Sequence record: SRR22947725_499
Strand: one strand, 5' to 3'
Length of the DNA: 52,806 nucleotides
In this document: positions 48,405 through 52,806 of the stretch, in pieces
Layout: the number at the start of each line of letters is the position of its first letter
Numbering within the stretch: position 1 is the first letter of the stretch
The notes under the pieces: generated by a model
The model's input: only the letters and a program-made list of their open reading frames with translations
Database searches by the model: none
Told to the model about the DNA's origin: nothing
Made by a program: the position numbers and the translations under genes

Positions 48405-49616
48405 CTACTGCTCAATTTCAATTTCGGGGTATAAAAAGTGATTGTACGGAAAACGTGTGATATGTAACTCACGTACTTTCTGATATAATCGATTCCGAAA
48501 AGCATCCATGTGCTGTTTTTTTATAGCAGATACGAAAACGGCATCGCCTTGGGTTTTTGCCATCCATGTTTCTTTCCACTCTTCTAGGCTGTAGTGTGCG
48601 CTACCGCGCTCTATCATTAAATCGGTTTCATCAAAATCCTCAGCTTTGTAGGCGTCTATTTTATTAAATACCATAAGGGTGGGTTTGTCCTGTACCTTAA
48701 GTTCGGCAAGTAGCTCATTAACAGAGCTTATATGTGCCTCAAAATGCGGATGAGCAATATCAACAACGTGTAATAATAAATCTGCTTCGTGTACTTCGTC
48801 TAATGTGCTTTTAAAACTCTCTACCAACTGAGTTGGTAGCTTTCGAATAAACCCAACAGTATCGGACAACAAAAACGGAAGATTGCCTACAACTACTTTA
48901 CGAACCGTAGTATCTAAAGTGGCAAACAGTTTGTTTTCAGCAAACACATCGCTCTTACTGAGTACGTTCATTAAGGTCGATTTACCTACGTTGGTATAGC
49001 CCACTAAAGCTACACGAATCAATGAACCACGATTTCCTCGTTGGGTTGCCATTTGACGGTCTATGGTTGTAAGCTTCTTTTTAAGCAAGGAAATTTTATC
49101 ACGAACAATACGGCGATCCGTTTCTATTTCGGTCTCTCCAGGTCCTCGCATTCCAATACCCCCTTTTTGTCGTTCCAAGTGTGTCCAAAGGCCTTTTAGG
49201 CGCGGGAGTAGGTACTGATATTGTGCCAATTCTACTTGTGTCCGCGCATAACTCGTTTGGGCGCGCTGCGCAAAAATATCAAGGATAAGTCCAGTACGGT
49301 CGAGGATTTTACATTTGAGTAATTCTTCGATGTTTGCTTGTTGGGCTGGTGTAAGTTCGTCGTCAAAAATAACCGTGCTTACATCGTTGGCTTTTACGAA
49401 GGCTTCCACTTCTTCAATTTTTCCACTGCCTATAAACGTTTTAGGATGCGGCGTTTCAAGCTTTTGAGTATAGCGTTTAAGGACCTTGGCCCCTGCGGTT
49501 AGGGTCAAGAATTCAAGCTCGTCCATGTAGTCGCTGACCATCTTTGCGGTTTGTTCTTGGGTAATAATTCCAACAAGTACTGCGTATTCGTATTCGTGTT
49601 TTTTATGTTCAAGCAT
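48405..49616 (-). CDS. hflX: GTPase HflX
   Basis: GPGETEIETDRR, GYTNVGKST, LFATLDT, DTVGF, NKID. Confidence 0.97.
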   Translation of the reverse strand: MLEHKKHEYEYAVLVGIITQEQTAKMVSDYMDELEFLTLTAGAKVLKRYTQKLETPHPKTFIGSGKIEEVEAFVKANDVSTVIFDDELTPAQQANIEELLKCKILDRTGLILDIFAQRAQTSYARTQVELAQYQYLLPRLKGLWTHLERQKGGIGMRGPGETEIETDRRIVRDKISLLKKKLTTIDRQMATQRGNRGSLIRVALVGYTNVGKSTLMNVLSKSDVFAENKLFATLDTTVRKVVVGNLPFLLSDTVGFIRKLPTQLVESFKSTLDEVHEADLLLHVVDIAHPHFEAHISSVNELLAELKVQDKPTLMVFNKIDAYKAEDFDETDLMIERGSAHYSLEEWKETWMAKTQGDAVFVSAIKKQHMDAFRNRLYQKVRELHITRFPYNHFLYPEIEIEQ

Positions 49617-50367
49617 CTAAGGAGGTAAGGCTAAGGTTTTCGCCGTCAAATACAGCATACGTATTGTATTCAATCCAATCGCCTAGGTTTATATAGCGTG
49701 AATTTTTAGGTAACTCAATGTCTAGTGGCAGGTGACGGTGTCCAAACACAAAATAATCCATGCCTTGGGTCTCTAATTTTTTTCTGCAAAAATGTACCAG
49801 CCATTCGCTATCCGGGCCGTTGTACACTTTATCCTCATCGCCAGAAATCAATCGGTTTTTTAGGGACAAGTGTTGCGCAATACGAAGCCCTAAATCAGGA
49901 TGAATCCAACGGTATACCCATTGATTAAACCGATTACTAAGCATTTTTTTCATGCGCTTATAGCCCTTATCGCCTGGGCCTAACCCATCACCATGGCCGA
50001 TAAAAAACGTTTTATCATTAAGTGTAATTTGTTGGGGTTCATAAAAAACAGGGATTCCCAGTTCTTCCTGAAAGTAGTTTTTCATCCACATATCGTGGTT
50101 GCCAACAAAGAAATAAATCGGAATACCACTGTCTGTAAGTTCAGCCAGCTTCCCTAATACGCGAACAAAGCCTTTAGGAACAACACGCTTATACTCTATC
50201 CATAGATCAAATAAATCGCCCATTAAGTAAATGGCGGCGGCATCATGTCTTATGCTGTCAAGCCAAGCGACAAACTGCTTTTCTCGAATGCGACTTGCCG
50301 CAGCGTTGGGTGCTCCAAGATGGTTGTCGGATGCGAAGTAAACGTTTTTACCCTTGGGTATATTCAT
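49609..50367 (-). CDS. UDP-2,3-diacylglucosamine diphosphatase (LpxH-like)
   Basis: SDNHLG, GDLFD, GNHD, HGDG, GHRH, NLGDW; start placed at MNIPKGK. Confidence 0.88.
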   Translation of the reverse strand: MNIPKGKNVYFASDNHLGAPNAAASRIREKQFVAWLDSIRHDAAAIYLMGDLFDLWIEYKRVVPKGFVRVLGKLAELTDSGIPIYFFVGNHDMWMKNYFQEELGIPVFYEPQQITLNDKTFFIGHGDGLGPGDKGYKRMKKMLSNRFNQWVYRWIHPDLGLRIAQHLSLKNRLISGDEDKVYNGPDSEWLVHFCRKKLETQGMDYFVFGHRHLPLDIELPKNSRYINLGDWIEYNTYAVFDGENLSLTSLDA

Positions 50368-50383
50368 GTTGCAAAAGTACAAA

Positions 50384-50833
50384 TTACTGGTCGGAAGCGT
50401 ACCACTCCGCATAAGAAGTAGCCGTTTCTTGCAAACGCAAATGATGAAGTTGTATGTTTTTGGGGAGTTTAGCCTGAATTTTAGCGGAAAAATCAACAAC
50501 CATTTCTTCACTAGTAGGCTGGTAGTCAACGAGCAGCACCTTATGGCCATTCGCGGCAAGGGTGTTGGCAAGTTCAACATGCGGTGTATTTTGATTAAAC
50601 ACCGTCGCATGATCAAAAAGATCAACAATTTCCCCTTTTACTATTGTTTTTAAATCTTTAAAATCAATAACCATTCCGTACTTGACGTTGTTGGAATCGC
50701 TAATCGGCGAGCCGATGACCGTTACGTCGAGTTTGTAGCTGTGTCCATGAACGTTTTTGCATAGCCCGTCGTAGCCGTACAACGCATGGCCCGTTTCAAA
50801 GGTGAAACTTTTGGTTATTCGAATTGTACTCAT
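50384..50833 (-). CDS. queD: 6-carboxy-5,6,7,8-tetrahydropterin synthase
   Basis: CKNVHGHSY, MVIDF, FDHA, PTSE, QET. Confidence 0.88.
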   Translation of the reverse strand: MSTIRITKSFTFETGHALYGYDGLCKNVHGHSYKLDVTVIGSPISDSNNVKYGMVIDFKDLKTIVKGEIVDLFDHATVFNQNTPHVELANTLAANGHKVLLVDYQPTSEEMVVDFSAKIQAKLPKNIQLHHLRLQETATSYAEWYASDQ

Positions 50834-51603
50834 GACTTGGATTTAAGTTGTTGTAGCGTTTTTTGGGTTTCGGGTAAAAGCAATAACCTTCCCGAAATTT
50901 CAGCGTTTTTTGGGAGTTCTACTTCCCAATGATCCGTATTGTCCCACAAGGTCTTTTTAAGCGCTGCTACGGCTTCAGGTGCGTATTGCGCCAATTGTTC
51001 TGCGGTGCGAATTGCTGCTGTGTTTGCGGTTTCGTTTTCTGGGTGAACTTCAGCATACAAGCCGTGCTGTAAGGCCCAATCAGCACTTTTCCAAGTCGTA
51101 GGCTTTAATGCTAATGCTGCCAACGCAGCCGTCCCTATTTTACGTGAAACGGCTGGGGCAATAACAAAAGGCCCAATGCCAATGGCAAGTTCCGATAACC
51201 GAATTTGGGCTGCTTCTGAAGCAATGGCATAATCACAAGCTGCTATAATACCAACCCCTCCGCCAATTGCTTTCCCATGAATACGCCCAACAATGGGTTT
51301 AGGACATAGGCGCATAGCGTTAATAAGGTTGGCAAAACCCATAAAAAATATTTTTCCTTGTTCAGGAGTTTTAACGGCAAGTAGCTCGTCGAAAGAAGCG
51401 CCTGCACAAAAAGCTTTTGACAAATCGCTTTGGAGTAAAACAGCACGTACTTCAATGGTTGCTGCAGCTGTATTAATGGCTTCCGTAAGGGCGCTAAGTT
51501 GCGCCTGTGGAAAGCAATTCTGCTTGGGATGGGCGAACGTGATAGTCGATACTGCATTTTCTGTTTGAACATGCACCCCCTCTGTCATCAATAGATTCCC
51601 CAT
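50830..51603 (-). CDS. Enoyl-CoA hydratase/isomerase family protein
   Basis: AFCAGASF, GKAIGGG, LSELAIG; exact start uncertain. Confidence 0.9.
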   Translation of the reverse strand: MGNLLMTEGVHVQTENAVSTITFAHPKQNCFPQAQLSALTEAINTAAATIEVRAVLLQSDLSKAFCAGASFDELLAVKTPEQGKIFFMGFANLINAMRLCPKPIVGRIHGKAIGGGVGIIAACDYAIASEAAQIRLSELAIGIGPFVIAPAVSRKIGTAALAALALKPTTWKSADWALQHGLYAEVHPENETANTAAIRTAEQLAQYAPEAVAALKKTLWDNTDHWEVELPKNAEISGRLLLLPETQKTLQQLKSKS

Positions 51604-51655
51604 ATCTTTGCTATTAGTGAAAAAGCAAAAATACGGAATAAAGGATTGATAAGAT

Positions 51656-52432
51656 ATGAAACACATCAAAGGAATATTGTTTGATTTGGACGGCGTGTTT
51701 TATGTAGGCAGCACATTGATTGCTGGAGGTAATGAAACCCTAGCCTGGCTTCGAAGTCATGGTATTGGCTACCGTTTTGTCACAAACAATACCACCCTTT
51801 CACGAAGTGCCTTGACATCAAAACTACAAGGCTTAGGGCTTCACATAAAAGAGGATGAATTATTGAGCGCAAACTATGCCGGGGTGTTGCAACTCCGTAA
51901 ATTGGGCCTAAAACGCTGTCGGTTGGTGTTGCCACCAGAAGCACAAGCAGACTATCCCCCGTCTGTAATGGATAAGCCAGAGGCTATCGTCATTGGTGAT
52001 ATTGGGAATTCTTGGAATTATGACTTACTGAACAGTTTGATGAATCAATTGCTAGATGGCGCTGAACTTATTGCCTTGCACAAAGGGCGTTATTTTCAAA
52101 CCGACGTTGGCTTGCGTTTGGACAGCGGCGCTTTTGTAGCTGCATTGGAGCATGCAACAGGCAAAAAAGCGCATGTGGTGGGCAAACCCCACGCCGCTTT
52201 TTTTGAACTCGGTAGCGCGCAGCTAGATGCAAGCCCTGATGAAATGCTAATGGTTGGGGATGATTTAATCAATGACATTGAAGGAGCGCAAACAGTGGGC
52301 TATCACGCGGTGTTGGTGCAGACAGGGAAATACCGTCAAGATCTTGTAGATCTAAGCCCAATAAATCCCAATGGAATAATCGCTTCCGTGGCTGGGTTAC
52401 CCGATTATTTGTCATCTTTAGAACAGAGATAA
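51656..52432 (+). CDS. HAD-IIA family hydrolase (TIGR01458-like)
   Basis: DLDGV, TNNTT, GKP, MVGDDLINDIEGA, TGKY. Confidence 0.9.
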   Translation: MKHIKGILFDLDGVFYVGSTLIAGGNETLAWLRSHGIGYRFVTNNTTLSRSALTSKLQGLGLHIKEDELLSANYAGVLQLRKLGLKRCRLVLPPEAQADYPPSVMDKPEAIVIGDIGNSWNYDLLNSLMNQLLDGAELIALHKGRYFQTDVGLRLDSGAFVAALEHATGKKAHVVGKPHAAFFELGSAQLDASPDEMLMVGDDLINDIEGAQTVGYHAVLVQTGKYRQDLVDLSPINPNGIIASVAGLPDYLSSLEQR

Positions 52433-52447
52433 AACAAAAAAATGATT

Positions 52448-52455
52448 TACTTTTG
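52448..52455 (+). promoter_or_regulatory. -7 promoter element for the pseudo-tRNA/GIY-YIG/tRNA unit
   Basis: TACTTTTG, 9 nt before the tRNA-like copy. Confidence 0.7.
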
Positions 52456-52464
52456 TGGACTATC

Positions 52465-52524
52465 GGGGATGTAGCTCAGTTGGCTACCCGCCCGAACGTA
52501 GCGTTCGGTACGGGCGGGGAGCGC
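52465..52524 (+). pseudogene. Duplicate of the tRNA 5' 28 nt interrupted by a 32-nt palindrome
   Basis: GGGGATGTAGCTCAGTTGGCTA (52465-86) plus GAGCGC (52519-24) is identical to 52777-52804. Confidence 0.9.
52487..52518. repeat. GC-rich palindromic insert CCCGCCCG-AACGTAGCGTTCGGTA-CGGGCGGG (REP-like)
   Basis: 8-bp terminal inverted repeat; inner CCGAACG-TAG-CGTTCGG hairpin. Confidence 0.9.
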
Positions 52525-52543
52525 ACATTGAAATAGTGTAGAA

Positions 52544-52786
52544 ATGTATTTTGTGTATATATTGTACAGCGAAAAAGGTACTTGCTATTATGTTGGCATG
52601 TCGAGAAACGTATTACAACGCCTTAAAACACACAATAGCGGACAGGTGCAATCAATAAAACCGTATGTGCCATGGCGAGTGGTATATACAGAAACCCATT
52701 CAACTCAAGCTGAGGCTAGAGAAAGAGAAAAATACTTGAAATCAGCGGCTGGTCGCCGTTGGAGAAAAAAACATTTGGGGATGTAG
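52544..52786 (+). CDS. Small stand-alone GIY-YIG nuclease
   Basis: VYIL(Y5), YYVG(Y16,G18), R26, H30-N-S-G, PW, E62-KYLKS; stop codon lies inside the downstream tRNA. Confidence 0.92.
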   Translation: MYFVYILYSEKGTCYYVGMSRNVLQRLKTHNSGQVQSIKPYVPWRVVYTETHSTQAEAREREKYLKSAAGRRWRKKHLGM

Positions 52787-52806
52787 CTCAGTTGGCTAGA
52801 GCGCTT
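52777..52806 (+). tRNA. 5' 30 nt of a tRNA, probably Ala (anticodon outside window)
   Basis: GGGGATG TA GCTC AGTTGGCTA GAGC GCTT: acceptor 5' strand and a paired D arm; the GGG start is typical of tRNA-Ala. Confidence 0.8.

Follow-up and report, generated by a model that had tools for sequence, protein, structure and literature searches.

A GIY-YIG nuclease cassette nested in the 5' part of a tRNA-Ala gene as a candidate selfish element without an integrase

What is a nuclease gene doing between the promoter of a bacterial tRNA gene and the tRNA itself, preceded by a broken copy of the start of that same tRNA? The question is raised by the last few hundred nucleotides of SRR22947725_499, a stretch of 52,806 nt analysed on one strand (below, the window), which ends within a tRNA-Ala(GGC) gene, at its nt 30. 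An earlier note, made from the letters of the window, had proposed a selfish or regulatory element. The reading that we favour, with somewhat more confidence than doubt, is that of a selfish cassette nested in the 5' part of tRNA-Ala(GGC), which carries no integrase and consists of a GIY-YIG nuclease gene and a tRNA-mimic arm split by a hairpin. The selfish part of the earlier proposal gains support from the recurrence of the cassette at tRNA genes, from empty sites in relatives and from switches between tRNAs, whereas there is little support for a regulatory role.

The unit lies downstream of a box, TACTTTTG (52448..52455, + strand), that can be read from the sequence as the -7 promoter box of the tRNA gene and that we take to be of the Bacteroidota type (consensus TAnnTTTG). 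The match alone means little, since 64 copies of the -7 motif TANNTTTG are present in the window and 65.7 would be expected. An identical box is found 8–9 nt before nt 1 of the tRNA in six empty orthologous sites (described below), and before the pseudo-copy in the occupied ones, in agreement with the earlier claim that the element is lodged between the tRNA promoter and the tRNA. The left part of the pseudo-tRNA arm follows, an exact copy of nt 1–22 of tRNA-Ala(GGC) (52465..52486, + strand). At the junction of D-loop and D-stem this copy is interrupted by a GC-rich hairpin or palindrome of 32 nt (52487..52518, without strand), after which the sequence GAGCGC, corresponding to tRNA nt 23–28, forms the right part of the arm (52519..52524, + strand). 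An A-rich spacer of 19 nt (52525..52543, + strand), the presumed 5' untranslated region (5' UTR), leads to an open reading frame (ORF) for a single-domain GIY-YIG nuclease of 80 residues (52544..52786, + strand). The final 10 nt of the ORF, including its TAG stop codon, are at the same time nt 1–10 of the intact tRNA-Ala(GGC), of which the first 30 nt are present (52777..52806, + strand). All these parts stand where the earlier note had placed them. No tRNA was identified in the window by ARAGORN because the window ends within the gene; the complete tRNA-Ala(GGC) is found at the matching place in L111, the closest relative locus, and in loci L001–L004. The A-rich spacer is conserved in the same loci and has been retained in two remnants from which the ORF was lost (L112, L113).

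When the palindrome is taken out, the arm and the tRNA start form a perfect 28-bp direct repeat with a period of 312 bp, so that the repeat and the 312-bp unit described previously are confirmed. The 22-mer representing tRNA nt 1–22 has exactly two copies in the window and none in 100 shuffles, and the palindrome CCCGCCCG..CGGGCGGG occurs once in the window and never in the shuffles; repeat and palindrome are not explained by chance. The hairpin is composed of an outer stem of 8 bp and an inner stem of 4 bp (AACG/CGTT), with a conserved 5-nt bulge (CGGTA), and its DNA fold has an energy of -12 kcal/mol on either strand. As had been noted, it is the 5' end of the tRNA that is duplicated and no integrase is encoded, since the unit holds the 80-residue ORF only. 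Neither a terminator-like site nor a second -7 box was found inside the 312-bp unit, and this makes it plausible that the ORF is transcribed from the upstream tRNA promoter, as the earlier note had suggested. The only hint of transcription is a contig from an RNA library (X14, 270 nt) that covers positions 52479–52746, and such libraries may hold DNA.

The ORF matches the Pfam GIY-YIG family PF01541 over residues 1–71 with 62.2 bits (cut-off 22.6, E = 5.6e-17). GIY-YIG domains are characterized by the tyrosines of the GIY and YIG motifs, an arginine, a histidine or tyrosine, and a metal-binding glutamate. In an alignment of 27 homologs the residues Y16, G18, R26, H30, N31 and E62 are invariant, while Y5 is conserved in at least 90%, and the family assignment made earlier from the conserved residues is thereby upheld. 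The AlphaFold2 (AF2) model of the protein (pLDDT 92.9) has the order strand-strand-helix-strand-helix-helix of the GIY-YIG fold. Its 13 best Foldseek matches are all GIY-YIG proteins (UPF0213, Slx1 and HIGLE; probability 0.95–1.00, none at E <= 0.001), the closest folds being those of UPF0213 and of the structure-specific Slx1 (TM score 0.70, root-mean-square deviation 2.1 Å). The best sequence matches among solved structures belong to UPF0213/COG2827, i.e. 1ywl (EF2693, E = 7e-7) and 1zg2 (BH0048, E = 2e-5). The protein is a GIY-YIG domain alone, as no DNA-binding domain could be identified either with Pfam or in the AF2 model, and searches of NCBIfam and PHROGs gave nothing specific. The best reading is a single-domain GIY-YIG nuclease of the Ssn/UPF0213/Slx1-like kind, with an activity that is predicted from sequence and model. 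The ORF is under purifying selection, with ratios of nonsynonymous to synonymous divergence (dN/dS) of 0.11–0.31 in 11 pairs, and of 0.11–0.17 when the window is compared with L111 and L001–L004.

The same arrangement recurs at tRNA genes of many other genomes. With the alignment of 27 homologs as query, one genome of each species was searched, whereby 247 stretches were found to encode a relative of the nuclease; the best 80 of these 247 were kept (the 80 loci). ARAGORN identified one tRNA in 76 of them, and the remaining four comprise a contig of 467 bp, two loci that end just past the ORF, and one disrupted gene. The stop codon of the ORF lies inside the tRNA in 61 of the 80 loci, while the tRNA is located further downstream in 13 and upstream in two. 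The overlap depends on the tRNA: the stop lies 9–10 nt into tRNA-Ala-GGC (27 loci), Met (1), Ile (1) and Val (2), and 22 nt into Arg-ACG (13) and Arg-TCG (16), as well as into one Ala tRNA. These target tRNAs (Ala-GGC, Arg-ACG, Arg-TCG, Met, Val and Ile) belong mostly to Flavobacteriaceae, but also to two Planctomycetes (tRNA-Val) and to a metagenome-assembled genome (MAG) of Peribacteria (tRNA-Ile). In five genomes, all strong homologs (E < 1e-17) were found at a tRNA, in contrast to weak GIY-YIG matches.

The tRNA of each of 74 loci was then compared, by gap-tolerant alignment, with the 170 nt before the ATG, and 72 stretches located 700 nt further upstream served as controls. A copy starting from tRNA nt 1–3 and split by an insert of 20–70 nt was found in 54 of the 74 loci and in none of the 72 controls; the 20 loci that failed this strict rule mostly show the same arrangement by eye. 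The inserts form GC-rich hairpins whose outer stem is CCCGCCCG/CGGGCGGG or a close variant of it, and the enrichment of tRNA 5' copies with CCYGCCYG..CRGGCRGG inserts that the earlier note had proposed to look for is indeed observed. Inserts follow nt 22/23 (38 cases), nt 7–9 (21) or nt 11 (6). The pseudo-copy extends to nt 28 in 13 loci and to nt 35 in nine, or up to nt 60 elsewhere, so that the duplicated 5' part can be longer than that in the window, and in a mirror form described below it is the 3' part that is duplicated. In the 200 nt upstream of the ATG, the 80 loci contain 62 copies of the hairpin motif, as compared to one in 231 kb of more distant flank; the hairpin is a constant, cassette-specific part rather than a later accident.

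The hairpin occurs in two forms, A and B, that are exact reverse complements of each other (25 loci with A, 36 with B, two with both, and 17 unclassified by the patterns used). The sister ORFs of L038 and L052 have opposite forms at the same tRNA position, hairpins nested within hairpins are present in L012, L020 and L052, and different ORF subfamilies pair with different palindromes. A tree was constructed of the ORFs (75 columns, five truncated frames dropped), in which most forks are weak. The type of tRNA (73 rows) changes 11 times on this tree against 28–41 times in 300 shuffles, and the hairpin orientation (59 rows) 12 times against 12–23. This suggests that the nuclease tracks its tRNA, yet with at least 11 switches, and that the orientation of the hairpin is labile. 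The two Planctomycetes loci, L038 and L052, are 83% identical over the cassette and tRNA-Val; a flank of 1.5 kb has switched sides and is inverted between them, suggesting a rearrangement that broke the DNA close to the cassette.

Some cassettes are multiplied in tandem. Locus L070 contains four units of 315 bp that are 98.1–99.7% alike, where the orthologous L051 has one, and in L086, from Leeuwenhoekiella blandensis, a paralog subfamily forms three tandem units of 327 bp, in which a differing palindrome, CCTGCCTGCCGGCAGGCAGG, sits in the anticodon loop of the pseudo-copy. The mirror form was found in L005 and L024, with the same ORF family and the same hairpin, and has the order full tRNA, terminator, ORF, pseudo-copy and second terminator; the pseudo-copy here consists of nt 10/15–22, the hairpin, and nt 23–75. 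Relatives of the window's organism also contain paralog subfamilies, which are nested on the 5' side at Leu-CAA and Arg-TCT and occur as mirror forms at Met, Arg-TCT and Val-TAC, with the hairpin in place of the anticodon arm in the pseudo-copy that lies downstream. When 11 loci were scanned with Rfam, only tRNA was revealed, plus two sub-threshold chance matches.

The locus of the window itself was compared among relatives, using as an anchor the gene, identified with Pfam, for a HAD hydrolase upstream of the cassette. This anchor was found at E <= 1e-40 in 19 of 41 relatives of one related genome, and 17 loci were informative. Six of these are empty (L115, L116, L118, L121, L123 and L127), in line with the expectation, expressed earlier, that empty sites would exist in close relatives. 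Five contain an intact cassette (L111, L120, L124, L125 and L126, with an additional 5'-truncated copy of the ORF in L124), and one a pseudogene (L119); a further pseudogene is L015. The other five are deletion remnants of three kinds. L112 and L113 have lost the ORF but retain the 5' UTR and an arm that contains two hairpins; only the last 30–40 nt of the ORF precede the tRNA in L114 and L117; and part of the arm is fused to the end of the ORF in L122. In a DNA tree of the HAD gene (midpoint root only) these states are interleaved: one clade of three loci is all empty, one combines intact cassette, pseudogene and remnant, and another has three empty loci and two kinds of remnant, while the window pairs with the intact L111, whose HAD gene is 92% identical. 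By parsimony on this tree, about three precise losses or about four gains fit equally well.

Divergence in the cassette is about a quarter of that in the flanking genes. Between the window and L111, the 312 nt of the cassette contain five mismatches and one indel (1.9%), with a synonymous divergence (dS) of 0.064 in the ORF, as compared to 66 differences in 774 nt of the HAD gene (8.5%; dS 0.256) and a dS of 0.361 in the next gene, an enoyl-CoA hydratase-like ORF (ECH; 50830–51669, minus strand; named from reading its translation) that served as the second flank. In other pairs the dS of the ORF is 1.7–4 times below that of HAD, and dN is usually lowered too. A shorter divergence time fits these data better than extra constraint, because dN/dS stays similar, and exchange of the cassette between lineages after their split would fit the low divergence.

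Several loci of this set differ in other respects at or near the tRNA. In L114, L115, L116, L122 and L127, the tRNA-Ala is followed by about 175–230 nt that end in a second copy of the last ~20 nt of the tRNA (..TAATCCC.TCTTCTCCAC), e.g. about 180–250 nt past the tRNA end, which resembles a small insertion bounded by a 3'-end duplication; no Rfam family was identified in this downstream stretch of the L114-type loci. In L112, L113 and L119/L032, foreign DNA interrupts the tRNA-Ala(GGC) that stands behind the cassette or remnant, within its variable region and after about nt 46. The beginning of this DNA resembles the start of a gene of the integrase type, and no tRNA is reported there by ARAGORN. 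In one clade, with L120, L125, L126 and L002–L004, HAD and the cassette are separated by an additional gene of about 780 nt, which runs on the opposite strand. Here the pseudo-arm opens with the 9 nt GGCCGTGTA, which resemble the start of an Arg-tRNA and not that of the Ala tRNA. In the window itself, a metallophosphoesterase-like ORF (49609–50628, named from its translation) overlaps an ORF of 149 residues (50384–50833), both upstream and on the minus strand.

The mechanism that we infer for the selfish cassette would proceed in five steps. The tRNA promoter would transcribe arm, ORF and tRNA as a single RNA. RNase P would then, on established knowledge of this enzyme and of trans-translation, cut at nt 1 of the tRNA and strip the last codons and the stop from the ORF; processed transcripts would be non-stop, and full-length protein would arise from unprocessed precursors only, resulting in low expression. 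The position of the stop codon inside the tRNA would thus turn RNase P processing into a built-in throttle on the nuclease. In the third step, the nuclease would recognise its hairpin, either single-stranded or extruded, and cut beside it within the tRNA-identical arm. This step is modelled on the Slx1-like fold and on the Ssn enzymes, single-domain GIY-YIG nucleases described as binding a hairpin in single-stranded DNA (ssDNA) and cutting just upstream of it, and as inactive on double-stranded DNA and on RNA (Chenal et al. 2025, PMC11893778). A cut at that place would allow the broken or circularised unit to recombine with a tRNA gene through the homology of the arm, in a Campbell or 'ends-in' type of event. 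A crossover in the 5' arm would give the order promoter, pseudo-5' arm, ORF and tRNA, as in the window, while a crossover in the long 3' arm, on the other side of the hairpin, would give tRNA, ORF and pseudo-3' copy, as in the mirror form. Either product would keep one copy of the tRNA intact; other products would be dead tRNAs bearing a hairpin, and would be lost. Finally, recombination between the repeats would generate empty sites, tandem arrays and remnants. In the window's lineage the cassette is, on this account, an old resident in single copy and did not arrive recently. The two hairpin orientations may be the trace of a single-stranded replicative intermediate primed by the hairpin, in analogy to the flip and flop forms of parvovirus terminal repeats. 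It is possible, though we hold this rather tentatively, that the cassettes constitute a distinct class of one-gene mobile element which, having no recombinase, integrates into tRNA genes through the homology that flanks the hairpin on both sides.

A number of observations weigh against this account. Vertical descent combined with loss would account for most of the pattern at the HAD-to-tRNA-Ala locus. G017, the genome closest to that of the window, has one copy of the cassette only. The low dS of the cassette could reflect constraint at the level of DNA or RNA, with only 77 codons in the ORF. As to the nuclease, the activity, strand and cut site of this subfamily are taken over from its likeness to Ssn and Slx1, and the SRM motif published for the Ssn repeats (HGTCWY..RNCYNB) was found in none of the 80 loci between -300 and +600 of the ATG, nor in the window. 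A homology of 22 nt is short for homologous recombination. The arms of L025, L028 and L031 are mismatched to their own tRNA and equal functional tRNA alleles of other hosts; the arm may be either borne by the element or the displaced 5' end of the host tRNA, and the promoter spacing fits both. No excised circle, joint or empty allele of the window's organism is present in contigs, which drop rare forms. Also, a scan of IMG/VR viral contigs with the alignment yielded 23 pattern matches, none of which was confirmed, so that no vector was found there.

The polymorphism of the locus might also be explained by classical intronless homing, in which the nuclease would cut cassette-free tRNA genes in double-stranded DNA (dsDNA) at the D-arm and repair would copy the cassette, with the duplicated 5' part and the hairpin as by-products that keep the tRNA alive and the old copy immune. 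Occupied (five intact) and empty (six) alleles among the 17 loci are what is seen for homing endonucleases, insert positions cluster in the D-arm, and the cassette is less diverged than its flanks. A precedent is T4 segB, a free-standing GIY-YIG gene in a phage tRNA gene cluster whose inheritance it drives (PMC2330249). Homing endonucleases of the SegB type share with the cassettes the vicinity of tRNA genes, presence/absence polymorphism, a selfish nature and decay into pseudogenes. We nevertheless consider homing unlikely, because the restored tRNA keeps the whole presumed target, so that a resident nuclease would go on cutting, and because the 80-residue protein lacks a DNA-binding domain. 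Enzymes of the Seg or I-TevI type do carry such a domain, and cut a dsDNA target that is removed by the insertion. The cassettes, in contrast, encode the catalytic domain alone, reside in bacterial chromosomes with a constant hairpin-split pseudo-copy, and regenerate an intact tRNA beside the ORF in 61 of the 80 loci. Furthermore, the ORF lies outside the insertion point of the hairpin, so that hairpin and ORF are two separate insertions, and the conservation of hairpin sequences across different tRNAs argues against repair scars.

About equally improbable, in our view, is a domesticated host module, e.g. an Ssn-like restriction of ssDNA that bears hairpins, which would limit uptake or recombination, or a protection of tRNA genes from invaders, where linkage to the tRNA would only secure expression. 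Purifying selection on the ORF would be in line with this, as would its single copy in the closest genome and its residence at the same locus in lineages whose HAD proteins differ by about 25%; moreover, SsnA modulates natural transformation in Neisseria (PMC11893778). The likeness to Ssn extends, as far as that source describes it, to the single GIY-YIG domain of about 80–95 residues (here 80) without extra domain, to a gene adjoining a hairpin-forming inverted repeat of 20–50 nt, and to the pairing of protein subfamilies with different hairpins. Genomes of Maribacter, Leeuwenhoekiella and Winogradskyella are listed as positive for cd10448 (GIY-YIG_unchar_3) in Supplementary Data 4 of that paper, and the proteins studied here may be counted in this family. 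The Ssn repeats, however, are described as occurring in hundreds of copies, whereas the hairpin of the cassette is essentially single-copy in the window and in the genome flanks, which leaves little for restriction to act on; it is also placed within a partial tRNA copy, and the gene overlaps the tRNA. A host function is difficult to reconcile with frequent loss at one locus (six empty sites, five remnants, two pseudogenes), with nearly identical tandem arrays, and with switches between tRNA species and phyla. A homolog at E <= 1e-12 was found in 13 of the 41 relatives and not in the other 28, these genomes being incomplete MAGs. The defence-system models of PADLOC gave no convincing match, only partial ones to PDC-S14 at E about 1e-3.

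Control at the RNA level, in which pseudo-5' half and hairpin would form a leader that governs tRNA maturation or translation of the ORF, possibly by competition with the true 5' half for the 3' half of the tRNA, appears very unlikely. The identity of 20 of 28 uninterrupted arms to their own tRNA, the location of all parts in one presumed transcript and the RNA-library contig over 52479–52746 could be taken in its favour. Against it, the hairpin is found in either orientation, distributed nearly at random on the ORF tree, which argues for a function as DNA rather than as a specific RNA structure; the mirror form has its pseudo-copy after a terminator; no Rfam family besides tRNA was identified in the scanned loci; and the empty sites indicate that the tRNA needs no such leader.

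As to authenticity, contigs X2, X3 and X4, which come from three runs belonging to as many studies, extend over HAD, tRNA fragment, hairpin, ORF and tRNA start; they differ from the window in 2–6 letters, show no joints, and all stop inside the tRNA as the window does. With independent contigs spanning it, the duplication is not a misassembly, a possibility that the earlier note had wanted excluded. The chance that the arrangement is an artefact of assembly or a random duplication is negligible: the window and all matching contigs do end inside the tRNA, a repeat in metagenome graphs, but the three contigs span the whole unit, the same layout is also present in isolates, among them Leeuwenhoekiella blandensis MED217 and Maribacter stanieri, and shuffles contained neither repeat nor palindrome. 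In the comparison of contigs, two positions within the ORF, 52656 (T in the window) and 52763 (A in the window), were found to be C in all three DNA runs compared, and the RNA-library contig also has C at 52656.

The selfish, tRNA-nested cassette shares properties with several other known systems. Like tRNA-associated elements with a tyrosine integrase, it is inserted in a tRNA gene, brings a replacement piece that keeps the gene functional, and leaves a direct repeat. It differs from them by having no integrase, a size of only 312 bp, a duplication of the 5' part, a repeat interrupted by a hairpin, and a location between promoter and tRNA. The IS200/IS605 and REP/RAYT families, which PMC11893778 also discusses, transpose ssDNA guided by two subterminal hairpins and with an enzyme of the HUH/Y1 type. 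These share with the cassettes a very small size, an imperfect hairpin with a conserved bulge, a small nuclease and a dependence on orientation and strand, but the cassettes have a GIY-YIG instead of an HUH/Y1 enzyme, a single hairpin, an arm with homology to a tRNA, and tandem arrays. The best structural relatives of the protein are UPF0213/COG2827 and Slx1, the latter a structure-specific enzyme that cuts branched DNA; Slx1 has a RING domain and a partner, Slx4, unlike the protein described here, and to our knowledge neither UPF0213 nor Slx1 has been linked to tRNA genes.

A full-text literature search, outside which most subscription journals fall, revealed no report of such GIY-YIG cassettes within tRNA genes of bacteria; the nearest items are T4 SegB and fungal mitochondrial endonuclease genes. 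The Ssn paper notes the insertion-sequence-like appearance of the hairpin-gene-hairpin arrangement, and tRNA is mentioned nowhere in its main text (PMC11893778). The architecture looks like an undescribed kind of selfish DNA that is built from a known kind of nuclease and hairpin.

Genes for tRNAs are the classic landing sites of islands that bear an integrase. A unit of about 300 bp without recombinase, present in at least three phyla, appears to exploit the opposite end of the gene in the same way. For annotation, a tRNA 5' fragment with a GC-rich palindrome should be regarded as a signature and not as noise. If our reading is correct, it would explain many of the proteins annotated as 'GIY-YIG nuclease family protein', as well as odd pseudo-tRNA fragments beside tRNA genes, and it would provide natural pairs of nuclease and hairpin whose tRNA-directed targeting might be tried out for use as a tool. 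The cassettes would then represent a new, very small type of mobile DNA, and would assign a selfish role in nature to the hairpin-guided single-strand nucleases that were described recently.

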